NCBI GenBank assembly: GCA_964437465.1
Contig: CAYTGI010000006.1
Coordinates: forward strand, 1 to 44,956
DNA length: 44,956 bases
Source: an uncultured Candidatus Saccharibacteria bacterium
GTDB taxonomy: Bacteria; Patescibacteriota; Dojkabacteria; J137
Reading direction: 5' to 3'
Part shown: positions 3 to 12,535 of the stretch, piece after piece
How positions within the stretch are numbered: position 1 is the stretch's first letter
Layout: each line of letters starts with the position of its first letter
Program-made: the position numbers and the translations under genes
Notes under the pieces: model-generated
What the model saw: only the letters and a program-made list of their open reading frames with translations
Told to the model about the DNA's origin: nothing
Databases searched by the model: none

Positions 3-200
3 TCATCTGTAAGACATTTAGCAATGATGGTTGAGGATCATCCGCTAGATTATAGAAACTTTGAGGGAGTTATTCCTGAAGGAAATTACGGAGCAGGACC
101 AGTCTTAATCTGGGATGAAGGGACTTATGAATGGTCAAAATCCTCAAATCCAAAAGAAATTCAAGAATTTGTAAAAAAGGAATTAAAGAGGGGGAGTTAA
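3..200 (+). CDS. ligD: LigD 3'-phosphoesterase (PE) domain, 5'-partial; frame stops at TAA 198-200 and continues into the ligase ORF only via a -1 shift
   Basis: Manual translation from nt 3: [42 protein letters not shown], the typical LigD PE motif. Not in the ORF track. Confidence 0.9.
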
Positions 201-2230
201 AGTTGGTTCTTCATGGAAAAAAGCTTAAAGGGCTTTTTGCGTTTGTTCGTTTTAAAAAAGCTGGAGAGAATGCATGGTTAATAATTAAGGATAAAGATGA
301 GTTCGAAGGAAAGGAGATTAAAGATGAAACTTCAGTTCGGTCTGGTAGAACAATTGAAGAAGTTCTGGAAGGAAAAAATGCAATGGATCTTTCAGATGTT
401 AGTAAAAAATGGAAATCCCATACTGTAGAACCAATGCTTGCTAAGCTAGTCGATGAGCCGTTTGATGATGATCATTTTATCTTTGAAGTTAAATGGGATG
501 GATATAGAGCTATTTCTGAAACAGGAAAAAAGACAAAACTTTACTCAAGAAATAATCAGGATTTTAGTAAAGATTATGAGCTGATTTTTAATGAGCTTAA
601 AAAGATAAAGAAAGAAATGGTTATAGATGGAGAAATTGTAGTTCTTGATTATAAAGGAAGATCGGATTTTGATGCTTTACAGGAATATAAGAAAAATAAA
701 GAGGGAGAGTTAGTTTTTTATGTTTTTGATATTTTAAGTTTTGAAGGAAAGGATCTTCGAGATTTGTCTGTAGTTCAGCGAAAAAGAATTCTTGAAAATG
801 TTTTACCTACAAATAATTTAATTAGATACAGCGATCATATTAAAGAAAAAGGTAAGGATTTTTTTAAACTTGCTAACATGGAAAAATTAGAGGGAATGAT
901 TGCTAAAAAAATTGATAGTAAGTACGAAGAAGGGAAGAGGAGTGGTTCATGGCAGAAGATCAAATTAGTTAAAACGGAAGAAGTAATTATCTGTGGCTAC
1001 ACTAAGCCAGAAGGCAAGAGAGATGCTTTTGGTTCATTAGTACTTGGAGTGTATCGTGATGGAGAATTGGTTTACGTTGGAAATACTGGAAGTGGATTTA
1101 CAGATAAAAACCTAAAAGAAGTTAAAGCAAAATTAGATAAATATAAAACTAAAAAATCTCCTTTTAAAGATGAGCCGAGTCTTAATAATTTAGAGACATG
1201 GTTGAAGCCTGAAGTTATTGCTGAAGTTAAGATAAGTGGATGGACTAAGAAAGGAAATATGAGACATGCAATATTTATGGGATTCATAAAAGATAAGAAA
1301 GCAGAAGATATTGAAGGTTATAAACCAGAAGTGGAGCATGATGGTTATGAAAAGAAGGGTAATAAATTAGAGCTTTCTAATCTAAATAAAGTCTATTGGC
1401 CAAAAGAAAAGTATACAAAGGGAGATATGATTAAATACTATGAAGAAATTTCTAAGATCATGATTCCTTATCTAAAAGATCGACCTCAGAATATGAACCG
1501 TTTTCCTAATGGAATAACAGGCAAAAGTTTTTATCAGAAAGATATTGATTCAGTTCCTAAATTTGTAGATGTAGAAACTATTCATTCAGAAAGTAATAAT
1601 CGTGATATCGACTATATTGTGTGTAATAACAAAGAAACACTTCTATATATGGCAAACCTAGGAAGTATAGAGATTAATCCATGGAATTCTCGGGTTGGAA
1701 GTTTAGACAAACCTGATTACTTAATTTTTGATTTAGATGCAAAAGAGAAATATTTTGAAAAGATTATAAAAACTGCACTTGAGCTAAGAAAATTACTTGA
1801 AAAATATGAGATTGATAATTTTGTAAAAACCTCTGGGAAAAGAGGGATTCATATAAACATTCCGCTAAATGCTAAATACGATTTTGATCAGGATAGAACT
1901 TTTGCGGAAATTATTAGTAGAAAAATTGAAGAAAGAATTCCTGATATTGTAAGCCTTGAACGTAATCCGGATAAAAGGAAAGATAAAGTCTATATTGACT
2001 ACCTTCAAAACCGAAGAGGGCAGACAACAGTTGGTGTATATTCAGTTAGGCCAGTGGACGGAGCGCCAGTTTCAACACCATTAAAATGGAAAGAAGTTAC
2101 AAAAAGACTAGATCCAAAGAAATTTAATATTAAGACTATGAGTAAGAGGATTGATAAGGTCGGGGATATGTGGGAGGGAGTGTTAGGTAAGGGAATTGAT
2201 TTGGGGAAAATACTGAAGAAGTTAAAATGA
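131..2230 (+). CDS. ligD: DNA ligase D (end of PE domain, ATP-dependent ligase, primase-like polymerase); the ATG at 131 is probably not the true start
   Basis: EVKWDGYRA (KxDG adenylation motif), [20 protein letters not shown]; POL domain [36 protein letters not shown]. Confidence 0.92.
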
Positions 2231-2238
2231 TTATTATT

Positions 2239-2278
2239 GAGTACTAAGGTACTAAAGTACTTAGGTACTTGAGTACTT
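2239..2278. repeat. Five tandem 8-nt repeats RRGTACTW between convergent ligD and sortase
   Basis: gagtacta aggtacta aagtactt aggtactt gagtactt. Confidence 0.9.
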
Positions 2279-3134
2279 AATTTACCGGTCTTGCAATCGC
2301 TACATACCTATTTGAATTATTACCAGCTGGATAACAGGTAAACAAAGTTAAAGTTCTCTGGTTTTCCTGTCCTGTAATTATTGAAATATCAGTCGGCTCA
2401 ACAATCTTACTTCTAAACATTCTAAATTTATGGGTCTCTCCTTCCATCTCAATTATAATTTCATCACCTACTTTTAAATTAGGAATAAAAGAAAACGCTA
2501 CCTCTGGATCACTTGCCCTAGGATTATAATTAGGACTAGCGCTATGACCATAAATAACAATATTATTATTAACATCTGAAATCGGTAATCCAGTGTTTTC
2601 AAAATGTGCTAGTGAATTTTTAAGTACAGCATTGTAAGCTGATTCTGTTGTTGAGTCGACATTAGCTTGAACAGGTAATCTTTCGATTCCAATTGAGGGT
2701 ATTGAGATATAAAAAGTTCCTCTATAGTTTCTACTTACTGAATCATCTTGCAGAATCTGTTGATCAAATGCTTCTGAAGATACCTCAGCTAATCCAGCAG
2801 GATTAGAGATAAATTTAGATCTATCAATATAATCTCCAGATGTTAGAGTAGTCGTTCCTTGAGCAACGAGTCCGTTTTGTCTTTGTATTTGGTACTGAAT
2901 CTCTGGATAAACGTATTGGAAAATAAAATATAGTCCCAAAGCAATAAAAAAACTAGGAATGATTAAATTCGCTAGAAAAGAAGAGTTAACCATATTCTGA
3001 AGAAAATTATAGCTTTCAGTCGCTCCTGACCATGCTGAAAGCTTACGCTCTTCAACCTCTTCGTCGTTTAACTCAAGGTATTCTTTTTTAGATTTTAAAT
3101 AGTTTTCTGCTTTTCTATAGCTATATAAAGACAT
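2277..3134 (-). CDS. Sortase-family protein with N-terminal membrane anchor
   Basis: His-Cys-Arg triad in IYGHS, LTLFTCYP and NRYVA; TM segment FLANLIIPSFFIALGLYFIF. Confidence 0.85.
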   Translation of the reverse strand: MSLYSYRKAENYLKSKKEYLELNDEEVEERKLSAWSGATESYNFLQNMVNSSFLANLIIPSFFIALGLYFIFQYVYPEIQYQIQRQNGLVAQGTTTLTSGDYIDRSKFISNPAGLAEVSSEAFDQQILQDDSVSRNYRGTFYISIPSIGIERLPVQANVDSTTESAYNAVLKNSLAHFENTGLPISDVNNNIVIYGHSASPNYNPRASDPEVAFSFIPNLKVGDEIIIEMEGETHKFRMFRSKIVEPTDISIITGQENQRTLTLFTCYPAGNNSNRYVAIARPVN

Positions 3135-5233: not shown

Positions 5234-6040
5234 ATGAGTAAAAAAAATGAAAGTAAAGAAAGGTTTAATGTTTGGTTACAACAAGGTAAACACGATTTGG
5301 ATGCAGCAAAAGTATCACTAGAAGGCGGTTTTTATGAATGGGTTTGTTATCAGTCAATTCAAAGCGTTGAGAAGATCATTAAAGCAGTAGTTGTTCATTC
5401 AGGATTTCGTCCCCCAAGAGTTCATAAACTCGGTGTCCTTCTTGGAATGGCTAATAAGGCTAATAAGGCTTTTGAGGATGTAAAGCTAGAGTTTAGAAAG
5501 ATTGAATCCTATACTTTTATCTCTCGTTATCCATTTATAATTCCTGGGCAAAATAAAACTCCTCACGAATTAATTACAAAAGAAGAGGCAGAAACCTGTA
5601 TTAGATTAGCTACAGATATTTTAGATAAGATCGAAACATTCTTATCTGGGCAAACATCTTCATCAGGAGATAAGCCTATAGAAACTGGAGACTATTATTT
5701 TTCAAAAGAAGAGATAACTTCGAGAATAGAAAACTTGATCGAATCGATTATAAATTGTGAACATATTAAAACAGAGAAGATTATACTTTTCGGAAGTTTT
5801 GCTAGAGAGAAGACTAGGCCACGAACGTCAACTATGGATATTATGGTAATAGGGAGAACAGAACTACCTTTTCTTGAAAGAATTAGTTACGTTCGAGAAA
5901 TAACTAGAGGAAGTGAACCAATTGTTGAGCCATTAGTCTATACTCCAGAGGAGTTTGATCAGCTTCTTAATGAGGAGGGTGAGGGGTTTTTAGAGACAGC
6001 TTTAGAGGAAGGGAAAGTTATTTGGGAAAGATTTAATTAA
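5234..6040 (+). CDS. HEPN domain fused to a C-terminal minimal nucleotidyltransferase (MNT) domain
   Basis: WLQQGKHDL..A, QSVEKIIKA, RPPRVHKL, SRYP (HEPN); KIILFGSFAR and VYTPEEF (MNT). Confidence 0.85.
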   Translation: MSKKNESKERFNVWLQQGKHDLDAAKVSLEGGFYEWVCYQSIQSVEKIIKAVVVHSGFRPPRVHKLGVLLGMANKANKAFEDVKLEFRKIESYTFISRYPFIIPGQNKTPHELITKEEAETCIRLATDILDKIETFLSGQTSSSGDKPIETGDYYFSKEEITSRIENLIESIINCEHIKTEKIILFGSFAREKTRPRTSTMDIMVIGRTELPFLERISYVREITRGSEPIVEPLVYTPEEFDQLLNEEGEGFLETALEEGKVIWERFN

Positions 6041-6582: not shown

Positions 6583-6600
6583 AATTCGTAATTCGTAATT
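6583..6600. repeat. Heptamer repeat AATTCGT x2.5
   Basis: aattcgt aattcgt aatt abutting the stop of the giant ORF. Confidence 0.6.
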
Positions 6601-9600
6601 AATCCAAACTTTCTCTAATAGAGTAGAACCTTGAACCGAAGCTGTTCTCGTAAATCTTCTTGTATCTTCCATCATGAACAAATAGATGTGCAGGTCTTTC
6701 AAGATTTCCGTTACCATTACCATTCATGTTTCTTTGAAGGTCTAGTTCTCTTGCGTAAACCCCTCCTTTAATCATTAACCCATCCCATTTAAATGTATCT
6801 CCAGATTCGTTATCAAGCTCAGCCCTGAAAGTCCCATCTACAATGAAGAATCCCTCTATGATATCATAGTCTGCTGGATTATTAGTGAAGATATTAGTAT
6901 TTGTTTTACTTTCCCCAGTCTTAATTATTACATCTCCTTTCACAACGAATATACAACCATTTTGATTATGTCGAGTTGTTAAATCTGGTTCAATAATTAA
7001 GTTCCCTTCTACAAATATTATTCCTTGTTGATCACATACAGCACCGCTTCTAATTGATACATCATTTTTTACAACAACAGGTCGAATAACATCTCTGTTT
7101 TCAGGTCTTGGGCAGAATCCTTCAGCAGTTGCTGAACCACAACCATTTGCATTTCGTGATGATCCTTGAGGACATGATGTACCTGGATTGATGAATGGCT
7201 CGCAAGCATCTTCATCGTATTTATCTGGTGTACATCTATAACAAGTTGTAACTGTTTCAAAAACTTCTCCCGGAGCTCGTTGACTAAAGCTTGTTGGACC
7301 ACTAACAGTTCCACTAGGACATGTAGCTGCCTTGTAATTAAAAGGATTACATTGGCTTAAGTCTGTAACTCCAGTTTCGCAGATAAAACATGTAATTTCA
7401 GATGGACATGTACCACCATGGATAGTTGAGCAATTAGGGTTTGATGTAGATCCACTTGGACAGATACTTCCTTGATATATAAATGATTCACAGGCATTTT
7501 GATCTCTCTTATCTTCTGTACATTTATAACAAGTTATTTCCACAGGACAGTTATTACCACACGTGTTTGATCCATTTACCCATCCTGCAGGGCAGTTATA
7601 GTTGTTAGAAGATACATCGAAAGTACTATTCTGACATGTATTTCCATCATTTTGAGGGATTGTACACCTAGAACAAGGTATTTGAGCTGGACAGTTATTA
7701 CATGTATTTCTACCTTGAGTCCATCCAGATGGACAATTCGATGCATTGAAAGTTTGGTTTTGACAAGCACCTTGGTCAGTTGTTGAGTCAGTACACCTAG
7801 AGCATGTTACATTTGCAGGACATGATCCACCATTAACTTGAGCACATCCATTATTGTTTGGGGTAGATCCTGCAGGGCAACTTGTTCCTGTGTGAATGAA
7901 TGATTCACAGTTATTCCCGTCTTCCAAAGAGCTAGTACATCTATAACAGGTAATTCTCAAAGGGCAAGTGCCACCAACTGCACCTGCACAACCATTACCT
8001 GCTGTAGAAGTGCCACCTGGACAAGAAGGTCCACTATACCACCTACCTTTACAGGCATTTCCATCGGTAAATGATCCTGTGCATGTGTAACAAAGAGAAT
8101 CTATAGGGCAAGATCCCCCAACAGCACTTGCACATCCACTTGATGATGTGGATGTTCCACCTGGACAGTTATTTGAATTTACTGTAAAAGCTTCACATGT
8201 ATTTCCATCTCTACGGCTTGAGGTACATCGATAACAAGTTCTGCTTACTGGGCAAGATCCTCCTACTGCTGCAGCACAGTTTGAACTTAGATTGTAAGCT
8301 CCTGGATTTCTTAAATATTGATTATAGTAATCTACATCATAAGCTTCACAGTTATTTCCATCATTTGTTGCAGAAGTGCATCTATATGCCCTTACAAAGT
8401 AAGGACATCTAGCACTTCCTGAGTAAATTTGTAAATTACTTGAATATCCCCCCCTTTGTTCGCAAGTACCGGATGTAATTGTAAATGGTTCATTTGTATA
8501 TGGGCTATCATATACATTACTAGTACATCTATAGCATACTGTTGATCCTGGGCAAGTACCAGATTGACATCTGCTTTGATCAGTCCATCCTGCAGGGCAA
8601 ACTGATCCTCTAACTCTTATTCTATTGCATGCACTGGTACTATCGCTTGTAGTTGAAGTACATTGATAGCAATCAGTAAATTCTATCCTTTTTTCACAGA
8701 CATTACTGTTTTGACATTGACTAAGGCTTTGAAATACATTCTGTGGATTATTATAATAATCCTGAATTGAACCAAAGTACTGTTCACATTGGTTACCGTC
8801 GTATGGATTGGTAGTACACCTGTATAGACTTGTTGAATATCCAGAATAATGCCTAGAATAGTAACCTGAATAGCAAACTCCTTGATCTTGATACCATCCT
8901 GCTGGACATCTTTCAGCGAAATAACCTTCCTCACAATTATTCGAATAAAAGAAACTATCATTATAACTTGAGCTACTCGCAGGTCTAAAACACCTTAATG
9001 TCCTTGGAAACTGATTATGTAAAGGAGGTTTTGGATTTCTGCAATAGCCTGTTTCTGAATTGCATAAATTGCTATTACTATACAGTCCATAATCCGCTTC
9101 ACAAAAGTAACTGAATACTCCTATATATTGACAGCTATTTGAACCACATCTATAACATCCTGTAAGTTCATCTCCGTAATATTGTTGAAAGCTAGCAGTA
9201 TTAGATGTAAGTACTTCATTAGGTATGAATGCTAACTCATCTTTTCTATCAAGATTTTGAATTTTTTCTAAGTTGACTGGGCTAAAACTAACATCATCTT
9301 GAGAAGAATTATTTTTCTTGTCTTCAGCAACAGTAGAAATCCCTCTAACATCAGGGAAAAGTGCTGAATTTGAAAAGAATTCATCAATAACTACAGGTTC
9401 ATCTATTGTTGGTAGTTCACCTCCATTATTTCTTTCAACTCTGTCTAAGATATGGTTATACCAATCATCAAAATTAGCTTCTCCTGGAACTTCAATAGCC
9501 TCATCAGTATACTGAGTAAGAATATTACTTCTCAATGATACTCGATCTTCAGGTAAAACATTATTCCCTATAATTACAGTTTCAGTAGATAAAGTAGCTG

Positions 9601-12535
9601 AGCCTTCGTATATATCGGGAATTTGCAGGCTGGTATTAGGTATCTCAACATTATCTATACCCTCGCTAGCTGATATTGAGCCACCAACTGACATTAACCA
9701 TGCGGGTTCTAATGCTTTAGCCTCAATTTCTTTTATAGCAACTCCAACATTACAAGCTCTATCTGTTACATAAAGAGCATGGCCCACTGGAATCTCTAAT
9801 TCGTTTCTTAAATCATTGAATGTAAATGTCCCTGTCAAAGATGCATTAATATTTGAATCTCTTTTAGGATTCCTTGTATATAAACTATCGTTACTATTAT
9901 TTTGGTAGATTAAATTTACGTTTTGGAAAGCACCTGCACCTGCATTTGGCTTATATTGATAGAGGGCGTTATTATTTGGTGTATAAAGATAAGCTCTAGT
10001 TTTACTATTATCAATTCCGCTTTGATTTACAGCGGTAGATTCTCCCCCCGACCTTGTTACTTGATATTCACTATTTGTAATAAAAGTAGGGTCGGTTAAT
10101 AGGACATCTGGTTCATCCATATCTATTCCCCAGTCGCCCCATTTTGTTAGTCGAATTGCATTTACATCTCTCGTCCCATCATTAGCAGGAGTAGCATTCC
10201 ACTGGTTAATTACAGTGTAATAAACACTATAAGTACCGTTAAAGAAAGAGTTACCAAATTCTATATCAAAGTTAACATTAGGGTTACTTGAAGATCCTGA
10301 CATTCTTGCAGTTACAGTACCTCTATATGTACTTAGATCTTGCCCTGTATTGCCGGAGATTGTTGTTCCTGAAGGATTGTATGTATACACAGTTTGATTT
10401 CTTGGATCAATTGTAACCATTATTCCCTCACTATTTCTAACCTTTTCTCGTACTGAGTTTCTTAAAGGTGTATTACCATTTTCAAATACACCGTTTCTTT
10501 TTCCATCGTTACCTGTTTTAGGTACAAAATAAACCTCTATTGATTTTATTTCACCTCTTGGTTCGTTTGCTCGAATATTAAATTCTAGTGGATTACTTAC
10601 GCTTGGATCGATACTACCAGCAAGTCCAGATATTCCATTACCACATGTATCATTAGTAACACCTACATTTGGAACGGTTGGTCTATCGATACAGGTTAAA
10701 GTGTCTATAGTCCTTGGAGAATTATTCAATAGAGGATTACCTCCGTTTGGATTAATAGCAAAAGCATATATGTCCTTTATATTTCCATCTATAGTACTAT
10801 CTGGAAGAGGGATATCAAACCCATGATTTCTGTTGCCACCACATTGATTTCCTACAGCTACTTCTCTTTGAACATTAGCCGTACCTGTAGTTATTAAGCT
10901 ACCTCGAGGTCCTCCTTGAGGTCCTTCGTAGACATGAATTGCTAAGGATTGGTTATAATTATCAGCATCACATGTCCATCCGACTAAACGGTTACAATCA
11001 ACCCCATCATGAAAACCTATAGGTGAGTGATTAGTTACATTTGTGCAAGAGTTACTGCAATAAGAGCAAGTAGCGCCAAGGGCTGCTCCTGGTGTACAAC
11101 TTGAGCCATTACTTCCTCCATTATCACACTGTTCAGATCCTTCACGATTATCATCTCCACAACAAGCAGGAGCAGTAAAAGCAAGTGAATTTGATGAAGC
11201 TCTCCCTGTAGAACTGTCATAGACTGATGCGTAATAGGTTGAACCAGCATTTAAAGTGAGTCTTGAACCTGATGTTGTACTTGGTTCACCTCCACTATAT
11301 TGTCTAAAACTATTTGCTAGTTTTCTTACAAATGATGTATTTGCATTTGTATTAAACCAAGAAAGTACTTTAGGATTAGTAGTATCAATATCCACCCAAT
11401 AGTTATTCCCAGTCCCTGACCAATCTACTTCTATAACTTTTTGACTATTACTATCACAATATGCCCTTGCAGAGGTTACTTGTGGTATTTCACAGTTTGG
11501 TGCAACGAAGCTTCGAGAGTTTGTAGATCTTTGGTCTTTAGTTCCATTATATACTGTAGCGTAATATCTAGTTCCTGGAGTTATATTAAAAACAGTTCCT
11601 GGATTACTGTTATATGGGTTTGCTGTTCTTTGTCTAAAATTAGTAGAATTGGCATTATATCCTATCGTTGCTCCAGCTCTATAATTCCAAAAAGTTCCTG
11701 CAGGGTTTCCTGAAGTTGTATCTAAATCAATATAGTAATCTTGGCCATTTGGACCTGTCCAATCAATATCTAAAAAAGTTTGCCCATTATTACAGTATGC
11801 ATTTGCACCAGTAACTTCAGTTACTTGTTCTGCAAGAGAAAATTGAGAAGTTGCCCATACAGCTCTCTGTCCATTACTTTTATAAACACCCCAACAATAT
11901 GTTCTTCCAGGAGTAAGTGAAACAGATATTGGTGCTTTACTTGGAGAACCTCCATTTTGATACATTAGATACCAAGTTCCTGGAACATTCATTGTTGGGC
12001 TTGAAAGTATAGGTTCAGTATTACCGGCTGTACAAGTTCCTGTAAATAGGTATAGTGAGTAACTTCTTGAACCAGTACAATTTACACCCCAATCTGTTAC
12101 TGTCCAATTGAATTCAATGTTTGAAGTATTAAAAGGTAATACTGCTCCGCTAGATGGATATTTCATCCCTGGTGCAGTAGGATTTGTCGGGGAACAACAT
12201 GTGCATCCTCTAGTTGCTCCACAAGAATTCCTCTGGATTCCAGCAGGGCATTCGCAACCACCCCATCCTCCATCGGTATCATTTAAACAACAAGCATTAC
12301 TATGCCATCCACTTGCACAAAGTATCTTTGGGGGAGGACAATGGTCTCCAGGTGGATTTGAACATGTTTCATCAGTTCCACAACCACTGCACTGATTCAC
12401 ATTTGCATTATTACAACATGTTCTTCCAGATTGAGCTTCTAAATTTAATTCACCTACTGAATGAGAATAAGTAATAAAGGCAATAGAAAAAAGGCAAACA
12501 AATAAAAATGTGTGAATAATATTATAAATCTTCAA
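6599..12535 (-). CDS. Giant secreted/surface Cys-rich multidomain protein (1978 aa)
   Basis: N-terminal signal/TM; two ~110-aa beta-rich repeats; CGD..REGSEQCDNG motif; about 12 CYRCT..DGN.C..CP.G..C..GG.CP repeats; C-terminal IFVEGNLII/IIEGFFIVDG/LMIKGGVY domain. Confidence 0.9.
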   Translation of the reverse strand: MKIYNIIHTFLFVCLFSIAFITYSHSVGELNLEAQSGRTCCNNANVNQCSGCGTDETCSNPPGDHCPPPKILCASGWHSNACCLNDTDGGWGGCECPAGIQRNSCGATRGCTCCSPTNPTAPGMKYPSSGAVLPFNTSNIEFNWTVTDWGVNCTGSRSYSLYLFTGTCTAGNTEPILSSPTMNVPGTWYLMYQNGGSPSKAPISVSLTPGRTYCWGVYKSNGQRAVWATSQFSLAEQVTEVTGANAYCNNGQTFLDIDWTGPNGQDYYIDLDTTSGNPAGTFWNYRAGATIGYNANSTNFRQRTANPYNSNPGTVFNITPGTRYYATVYNGTKDQRSTNSRSFVAPNCEIPQVTSARAYCDSNSQKVIEVDWSGTGNNYWVDIDTTNPKVLSWFNTNANTSFVRKLANSFRQYSGGEPSTTSGSRLTLNAGSTYYASVYDSSTGRASSNSLAFTAPACCGDDNREGSEQCDNGGSNGSSCTPGAALGATCSYCSNSCTNVTNHSPIGFHDGVDCNRLVGWTCDADNYNQSLAIHVYEGPQGGPRGSLITTGTANVQREVAVGNQCGGNRNHGFDIPLPDSTIDGNIKDIYAFAINPNGGNPLLNNSPRTIDTLTCIDRPTVPNVGVTNDTCGNGISGLAGSIDPSVSNPLEFNIRANEPRGEIKSIEVYFVPKTGNDGKRNGVFENGNTPLRNSVREKVRNSEGIMVTIDPRNQTVYTYNPSGTTISGNTGQDLSTYRGTVTARMSGSSSNPNVNFDIEFGNSFFNGTYSVYYTVINQWNATPANDGTRDVNAIRLTKWGDWGIDMDEPDVLLTDPTFITNSEYQVTRSGGESTAVNQSGIDNSKTRAYLYTPNNNALYQYKPNAGAGAFQNVNLIYQNNSNDSLYTRNPKRDSNINASLTGTFTFNDLRNELEIPVGHALYVTDRACNVGVAIKEIEAKALEPAWLMSVGGSISASEGIDNVEIPNTSLQIPDIYEGSATLSTETVIIGNNVLPEDRVSLRSNILTQYTDEAIEVPGEANFDDWYNHILDRVERNNGGELPTIDEPVVIDEFFSNSALFPDVRGISTVAEDKKNNSSQDDVSFSPVNLEKIQNLDRKDELAFIPNEVLTSNTASFQQYYGDELTGCYRCGSNSCQYIGVFSYFCEADYGLYSNSNLCNSETGYCRNPKPPLHNQFPRTLRCFRPASSSSYNDSFFYSNNCEEGYFAERCPAGWYQDQGVCYSGYYSRHYSGYSTSLYRCTTNPYDGNQCEQYFGSIQDYYNNPQNVFQSLSQCQNSNVCEKRIEFTDCYQCTSTTSDSTSACNRIRVRGSVCPAGWTDQSRCQSGTCPGSTVCYRCTSNVYDSPYTNEPFTITSGTCEQRGGYSSNLQIYSGSARCPYFVRAYRCTSATNDGNNCEAYDVDYYNQYLRNPGAYNLSSNCAAAVGGSCPVSRTCYRCTSSRRDGNTCEAFTVNSNNCPGGTSTSSSGCASAVGGSCPIDSLCYTCTGSFTDGNACKGRWYSGPSCPGGTSTAGNGCAGAVGGTCPLRITCYRCTSSLEDGNNCESFIHTGTSCPAGSTPNNNGCAQVNGGSCPANVTCSRCTDSTTDQGACQNQTFNASNCPSGWTQGRNTCNNCPAQIPCSRCTIPQNDGNTCQNSTFDVSSNNYNCPAGWVNGSNTCGNNCPVEITCYKCTEDKRDQNACESFIYQGSICPSGSTSNPNCSTIHGGTCPSEITCFICETGVTDLSQCNPFNYKAATCPSGTVSGPTSFSQRAPGEVFETVTTCYRCTPDKYDEDACEPFINPGTSCPQGSSRNANGCGSATAEGFCPRPENRDVIRPVVVKNDVSIRSGAVCDQQGIIFVEGNLIIEPDLTTRHNQNGCIFVVKGDVIIKTGESKTNTNIFTNNPADYDIIEGFFIVDGTFRAELDNESGDTFKWDGLMIKGGVYARELDLQRNMNGNGNGNLERPAHLFVHDGRYKKIYENSFGSRFYSIRESLD
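7110..8830 (-). repeat. Intragenic array of about 12 six-cysteine repeats (43-53 aa each)
   Basis: Units such as CYRCTSSRRDGNTCEAFTVNSNNCPGGTSTSSSGCASAVGGSCP and CYRCTSSLEDGNNCESFIHTGTSCPAGSTPNNNGCAQVNGGSCP; boundaries approximate. Confidence 0.85.

Follow-up and report, generated by a model that had tools for sequence, protein, structure and literature searches.

How do very small, partner-dependent bacterial cells contact their surroundings? To our knowledge, most large surface proteins of the Candidate Phyla Radiation (CPR, or Patescibacteria) have no recognisable domains, which blocks inference on this question. We analysed one large secreted protein of 1978 amino acids (aa), encoded in a 44,956-nucleotide stretch of DNA (contig CAYTGI010000006.1 of assembly GCA_964437465.1; hereafter the window, whose positions are used throughout) from an uncultured bacterium of class Dojkabacteria. 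The gene is an open reading frame with a TTG start on the minus strand at 6599-12535, and it encodes a signal peptide, an uncharacterised body, a cysteine-rich repeat array and a conserved C-terminal domain; all of its parts given below are likewise on the minus strand. What is the array made of, and what does it do for the protein? We propose that it is probably a disulfide-stapled rigid stalk or spacer, restricted to one lineage and composed of 12 clear and two degenerate units of an undescribed mini-domain of about 48 residues.

An old array of six-cysteine units

The C-terminal third of the protein is full of regularly patterned cysteines. We delimited the units, which are 43-52 aa long, by cutting the sequence at each C-x-x-C-T and aligning the pieces, and built a unit profile from 45 units of the protein and its four full-length orthologs (1977, 1961, 1682 and 1683 aa). 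Searched against the whole 1.18-Mb genome, the profile gave exactly 12 matches, all in the repeat gene at 7106-8824 (E = 7e-20 to 7e-11). The corresponding 12 units occupy 7103-8827 and start at aa 1237, 1289, 1334, 1383, 1434, 1482, 1530, 1578, 1621, 1669, 1716 and 1765. Their consensus, obtained from the 45 units and also from about 150 units family-wide, is C1-Y-R-C2-T-x4-D-G-N-x-C3-E-x-F-x6-C4-P-x-G-x7-C5-x7-C6-P-x3-T, with a cysteine spacing of C-x2-C-x9-C-x9-C-x10-C-x7-C; short variants have C5-x2-C6. A canonical unit is found at aa 1434-1481 (8093-8236): CYRCTSSRRDGNTCEAFTVNSNNCPGGTSTSSSGCASAVGGSCPIDSL. Among the roughly 150 family units D10 is conserved in 99%, position 12 is N in 72% or D in 15%, and E15 is present in 70%, while the conserved aromatic residues are Y2, F17 and W28 (W or S at position 28).

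Nine of the 12 units detected with the profile hidden Markov model (HMM) have six cysteines. The other three have four, as units 1237 and 1383 lack C1 and C4 and unit 1716 lacks C5 and C6. Two further units upstream of the array, at 8828-9157, are too degenerate for the profile, and their cysteine spacing is kept in all three long orthologs. Unit 0a (aa 1127-1178; 9002-9157), which falls below the HMM threshold and was recognised from its cysteine spacing, has the CYRC start and six cysteines, with a hairpin loop shortened to four residues and no DGN. Unit 0b (aa 1179-1236; 8828-9001) keeps C1, C3, C4 and C5; none of the three long orthologs has C2 or C6 in this unit, and partial HMM matches occur at the orthologous positions of P0003 and P0004.

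Tandem Repeats Finder detected no DNA-level repeat in the array, and pairwise identity between units is 34-66% at the DNA level (mean 49%) and 21-60% at the protein level. For ten of the 12 units the best match is not a neighbouring unit but the one in the same position of ortholog P0003 (59% identical overall), indicating that the array is old and positionally stable rather than a product of recent slippage.

A domain family of class Dojkabacteria

Pfam-A and NCBIfam contained no match to the whole 1978-aa protein at E<=1, and scanning 25 three-unit segments at E<=10 produced scattered noise only. The same scans of the orthologs and of the flanking parts of the protein were equally blank or noise. 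Against PDB sequences the unit profile gave one chance 'CPSGW' match in collagen IV NC1 and the whole protein gave none, and literature searches retrieved no description of the six-cysteine repeat. With hmmsearch and the unit profile, 57 proteins were returned from 1.84 billion representative proteins, about 50 of them genuine and carrying 1-13 units each; the family comprises about 150 units in about 50 protein clusters. Members share a length of about 48 aa, C-[YSF]-[RKQ]-C-T, D10, C-E, C-P-x-G and G-G-x-C-P, with profile E-values far below chance. Of the 221 genomes of class Dojkabacteria, 22 contain the unit, and most of these belong to the same family as the window. Across a sample of 400 genomes from the phylum there was one marginal match, with a stop codon inside, and the only named carriers are hypothetical proteins of 'Candidatus Dojkabacteria bacterium'. 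As far as these sequence searches reach, the repeat domain family is restricted to this class. The family is new, but cysteine-rich tandem repeats outside the cell are an ordinary kind of module, and it is not mechanistically surprising. The record of the closest ortholog, CAZWRA010000010.1 (same genus), bears the depositor label 'Candidatus Saccharibacteria', which is probably wrong; other relatives are labelled Dojkabacteria.

An earlier note, made from the letters of this DNA alone, had placed about 12 copies of the repeat at 7110-8830, given a consensus for them and attributed them to old duplications rather than recent slippage, and each of these points agrees with the profile matches, the low DNA identity and the positional orthology described above. 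It had also found no named bacterial repeat and only a superficial likeness to Ly6 or Giardia VSP modules, views that hold against Pfam, NCBIfam and PDB sequences: the families for Giardia VSP and furin-like CXXC repeats and for Ly6/uPAR three-finger domains (PF03302, PF00757 and PF00021) remained unmatched at E<=10. An HMM search of large protein sets, of the kind that it suggested, is reported here, and the confident match to a described repeat family that would have overturned it was sought in Pfam, NCBIfam, PDB sequences and by Foldseek and was not found.

The carriers of the repeat have a consistent extracellular context. An N-terminal hydrophobic signal or anchor segment is present in 48 of 52 carriers, and 27 of the 52 have a sortase sorting signal, [LIV]PxT[GASN] with a hydrophobic stretch and a basic tail behind it; in 11 of those 27, no more than 18 aa separate the last unit from the LPxT motif. 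Many carriers in other genomes end in LP[NDE]T[AGS] and not in the canonical LPxTG. Dockerin-like EF-hand pairs are found at the C-terminal end of nine carriers, and the co-occurring Pfam domains (DUF11, DUF4215, dockerin, cohesin, fn3, right-handed beta-helix and SdrD_B) are all extracellular modules. Because the carriers have signal peptides, sortase signals, dockerins, cohesin, fn3 and DUF11, the repeat domain can be placed outside the cell. In the window protein, a hydropathy scan and the sequence point to an N-terminal hydrophobic signal peptide or anchor at aa 1-26 (12458-12535), MKIYNIIHTFLFVCLFSIAFITYSHS, with a putative cleavage site. Furthermore, more than 15 proteins contain a single unit, and in some proteins the units are separated by Pro/Thr linkers. 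Hence the unit is an autonomous domain, and its six cysteines must pair within it.

Proposed cysteine pairing within the unit

Among the roughly 150 units of the family, 140 have all six cysteines and the remaining complete units have four; counts of five or three do not occur. In three orthologs, C1 and C4 have both disappeared from two array positions and C2 and C6 from unit 0b; in two of three orthologs, unit 1334 lacks C3 and C5. These losses form a perfect matching of 1-4, 2-6 and 3-5, and they are the evolutionarily older, retained ones; C5 and C6 were lost together in two separate single-lineage events. From the paired losses we infer a disulfide connectivity of 1-4/2-6/3-5, a map that we hold with moderate confidence and in which C1-C4 is the firmest bond. 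The short C5-x2-C6 variant fits better with C5 and C6 having different partners.

The means to form such bonds are encoded in the same organism. Its genome codes for a DsbA-like protein, anchored in the membrane and with a CGFC active site, and for a DsbB homolog; the two genes are separated by 3 kb on one contig, outside the window (C14:15002-19071), and VKOR was not found in the genome. According to a published survey, CPR bacteria are enriched in DsbA/MdbA-type oxidoreductases, families reported next to VKOR (bioRxiv 10.1101/335083). What is generally expected of a disulfide-bonded extracellular domain, namely an export signal, an even cysteine count and oxidative folding machinery in the organism, is present here, and the repeat is extracellular and, judging from sequence, very probably disulfide-bonded.

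The earlier note had left disulfide bonding and metal binding side by side. If the cysteines bound metal instead of forming disulfides, in a zinc-ribbon-like CxxC...CxxC site or an iron-sulphur cluster, then C1-x2-C2 at the start of the unit and C5-x2-C6 in the short 'CSRC' variants could pass for two zinc knuckles; most units, however, have C5-x7-C6. The degenerate units keep C2, C3, C5 and C6, or C1, C2, C3 and C4, or C1, C2, C4 and C6, or C1, C3, C4 and C5. Since these four types retain four different cysteine subsets with no shared ligand tetrad, a single metal site is unlikely. Moreover, the domain is exported in an organism with a DsbA/DsbB pair, and zinc-finger families gave no match above noise with the three-unit segments at E<=10. 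We therefore regard metal binding as scarcely credible. The disulfide part of the earlier proposal stands on the even cysteine counts, the export signals and the DsbA/DsbB pair, and its metal part is unsupported, as the degenerate units have no cysteine tetrad in common.

Predicted fold of the unit

We modelled three units (aa 1428-1581) with AlphaFold2, using 25 rows aligned in unit register and taking the canonical unit above as the first of the three, and obtained a mean predicted local distance difference test score (pLDDT) of 81 and a predicted template-modelling score (pTM) of 0.49. In the model, each unit contains a six-residue hairpin. Strand 1 of the hairpin holds C1 and C2, its nine-residue loop bears D-G-N just ahead of the second strand, and strand 2 has C3 at its beginning; the CPxG loop comes next, and then a helix of four residues that begins at C5. 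Successive units of the 1978-aa protein are joined by exactly five residues, C6-P-x-x-x-(T)-C1, which is also the modal junction across the repeat family (61 unit pairs), and the model puts the start of the next unit's strand within this junction.

A Foldseek search of the PDB with the three-unit model, the structural check that the earlier note had proposed, gave weak Kunitz-like matches and none at E<=0.001. The list consisted almost entirely of Kunitz/BPTI domains, including tri-Kunitz SmCI (E=5e-3, probability 0.91), bikunin (E=0.13) and single BPTI domains at E-values of 3-8 with TM-scores of 0.46-0.65 over about 45 residues. Such a list would be expected if the array were a row of diverged Kunitz/BPTI-like domains that served as a multi-headed protease inhibitor, but the E-values stay short of significance and PF00014 was unmatched even at E<=10. 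The cysteines disagree as well: the unit spacing of x2, x9, x9, x10 and x7 is unlike the Kunitz spacing, Kunitz domains have no cysteine in strand 1, which here holds C1 and C2, and the joint loss of C1 and C4 at two array positions in three orthologs cannot be mapped to the Kunitz pairing 1-6/2-4/3-5 in any cyclic register. We rejected Kunitz membership on the profile match, the cysteine positions and the C1-C4 bond, and consider the inhibitor explanation very improbable. The resemblance is the generic one of a hairpin followed by a helix with three disulfides.

A lengthening element in a class-wide secreted protein

The part of the protein that follows the array, an all-beta C-terminal domain of about 170 residues (aa 1812-1978; 6602-7102), is its most conserved part, with 84% and 60% identity to P0003 and P0004. 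The corresponding values are 61% and 46% for the array units and 56% and 39% for their non-cysteine positions. The domain belongs to no Pfam family. It is present in 164 of the 221 genomes of the class, normally at the end of open reading frames of 700-1300 aa and often in two adjacent paralogs, and a sample of 300 genomes yielded weaker matches in about 22 further Patescibacteria. The tandem paralog pairs usually lie near rplS, RNase HII and EF-G. AlphaFold2 modelling of the domain from five sequences was poor (pLDDT 53); the Foldseek matches obtained with it (bactofilin, MinC, ice-binding proteins, ComZ and tapirin) all had E>0.2; they point to a beta-solenoid at most, and we did not rely on them. 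A placement of the backbone-protein homologs in type IV pilus minor-pilin operons was also dropped; their small neighbours are transmembrane-anchored, with no prepilin motif or Pfam match, and the others are housekeeping genes.

Upstream of the array lies a 'WYNHILDRVERNNG' module (9311-9448). In the relative P0023 the 'WY.HLLDR' module and the C-terminal domain are contiguous, whereas in the window protein the array stands between them, and because these flanking modules adjoin each other in P0023 the array looks inserted. Copy number is 5 or 12-14 units among the orthologs, the 1682-aa ones having only five, and 1-7 in other carriers. The window gene is thus a lengthened member of a class-wide secreted protein family, and the cysteine repeats are its lineage-specific lengthening element.

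How the array would work as a stalk can be sketched from these parts. Each unit would consist of the beta-hairpin, the CPxG loop and a one-turn helix, held together by three intradomain disulfides that the DsbA/DsbB pair would form outside the cell. The five-residue junction would be part of the next strand, making the array a stiff rod that resists proteases and not a set of beads on a flexible string; rod behaviour is expected since there is no flexible linker between units. Placed between the body and the C-terminal domain, the array would lengthen the secreted protein and set the reach of its functional head from the cell. If a unit spans about 2.5-3 nm, our own estimate from comparable mini-domains, the array would contribute 30-40 nm. 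A stalk or spacer is what we infer because copy number varies and because the array adjoins the wall anchor in many LPxTG-type carriers, both of them features to be expected of such a module.

The units might instead be adhesive or ligand-binding themselves, acting multivalently on a host-cell or polymer surface, with the DGN loop as a possible Ca2+ site, in line with the host attachment and Ca2+ binding that the earlier note had proposed. The domain does sit in surface proteins, D10, N12, E15 and the aromatic residues Y2, F17 and W28 are conserved, and the fast divergence of the non-cysteine positions (56% and 39%) compared with the C-terminal domain (84% and 60%) is compatible with a changing interaction surface. 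For the Dojkabacteria, CPR bacteria with reduced genomes of 1.2 Mb, a partner-dependent lifestyle is plausible. Nevertheless, we found no homology to a known binding module, close orthologs differ between 5 and 12-14 copies and tolerate degenerate units, and the usual position beside the wall anchor is typical of a spacer rather than of an adhesin at the tip. As it directly precedes strand 2, the D-G-N could simply be a turn motif. We consider a binding role for the units, the main alternative to the stalk, possible but unlikely.

A bolder reading goes further. The unit would have a new disulfide-rich fold whose D-G-N loop binds Ca2+, and the array would serve in host recognition as a 30-40 nm rod. 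Copy number would tune the length of this rod, and a partner cell would meet either the C-terminal domain at its end or the variable faces of the rod itself. We think this improbable, although if true it would provide a molecular handle on host attachment by the Dojkabacteria, which have no cultured representative.

Several points weigh against the stalk or spacer that we favour. The pTM of the three-unit model is only 0.49. The two C5 and C6 losses do not fit the 1-4/2-6/3-5 map, under which C2 and C3 would have to re-pair; they could do so, because in the AlphaFold2 model C2 and C3 (model residues 10 and 20) lie opposite one another at the hairpin base. Although a signal peptide is present in the 1978-aa protein, we recognised neither an LPxTG signal nor any other anchor in it, and its attachment to the surface is therefore assumed; the combination of an LPxTG-like motif, a hydrophobic segment and a basic tail is absent from it and from its four orthologs. 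Finally, a stalk role is hard to separate from a ligand-binding role and is compatible with one, and the conserved surface residues Y2, F17, W/S28 and D10 might form a binding site.

Other modules and neighbouring genes

The body of the protein contains an unnamed module at 10700-11150 (aa ~460-620), which reads 'CGDD..E.CD.GG.NG' followed by 'GFHDGVDCNRLVGWTCDADNY...HVY...QCGGNRNHGF'. The 'CGDD..E.CD.GG.NG' module recurs in the unrelated carriers P0008, P0037 and P0044 and looks like another Dojkabacteria-specific extracellular domain. Orthologs P0003, P0005 and P0006, but not the window protein, have a thrombospondin-type-1-looking motif, 'W[GS]ACSVSCGGGTQT', in their N-terminal ~100-140 aa; the region of this motif gave no TSP_1 match in Pfam at E<=0.1.

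The window's genome encodes four sortases, one of them in the window (2277-3134, minus strand) and 3.5 kb from the repeat gene; it is given here as context only. Also nearby are a fused HEPN-nucleotidyltransferase gene (5234-6040, plus strand) and a LigD-type ligase/primase-polymerase gene (131-2230, plus strand), both apparently unrelated to the repeat gene.

Significance and comparison with known systems

The analysis defines a searchable domain, a 48-position profile with about 150 instances and a predicted fold and disulfide map, that can be added to domain databases. It is a marker of the exported proteins of a single class and helps in annotating CPR surface proteomes. About three quarters of the class have the secreted family to which the 1978-aa protein belongs as a longer version, which makes this protein a target for structural work and for localisation in enrichment cultures. 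A cysteine-rich tandem stalk repeat is of an ordinary kind; it is the particular family that is new.

Among described cysteine-rich modules, Kunitz/BPTI domains (PF00014; multi-Kunitz SmCI and bikunin) resemble the unit in having about 50 residues, six cysteines, a beta-hairpin followed by a short helix and the capacity to occur in tandem. The repeat unit differs in that the similarity is below significance, the spacing and positions of the cysteines are other, the proposed C1-C4 bond is incompatible and no protease-binding loop is recognisable. Pacifastin-type inhibitor domains (PF05375) have the connectivity 1-4, 2-6, 3-5, the same as that proposed here. They are arthropod domains of about 35 residues with another spacing, and the repeat unit has no Pfam match to them.

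Tandem EGF-like and cbEGF arrays, such as that of fibrillin, are similar in their overall build, with units of about 45 residues, three disulfides, almost linkerless rods and an acidic D-x-N..E motif near the start, which in cbEGF binds Ca2+. The pairing in EGF is 1-3, 2-4, 5-6, whereas C1-C4 is indicated in the repeat unit; its joint C1 and C4 losses contradict a 1-3/2-4 pairing, Pfam gave no EGF-like match, and the lineage here is bacterial. The DUF4215 or Myxococcus cysteine-rich repeat (PF13948, TIGR02232) is likewise a short, cysteine-rich extracellular repeat with a D-D-G-N motif, and it co-occurs with the CYRC repeat in the same Dojkabacteria proteins (3 of 44 carriers). It is a separate family with another cysteine pattern, and the array units had no PF13948 match at E<=10.

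In architecture, the array is also comparable with the stalk repeats of Gram-positive LPXTG proteins (Cna-B and SdrD B-type, PF17210 and relatives). These are immunoglobulin-like domains, about 90-110 residues long, in which isopeptide bonds or Ca2+ provide the stability, whereas the unit described here has 48 residues and three predicted disulfides, with no sequence or fold relationship to them. Like them, the CYRC unit forms tandem arrays of variable number between a functional region and a sortase anchor, and it would likewise be covalently stabilised and project a protein from the wall; one carrier of the CYRC repeat also has an SdrD_B domain.

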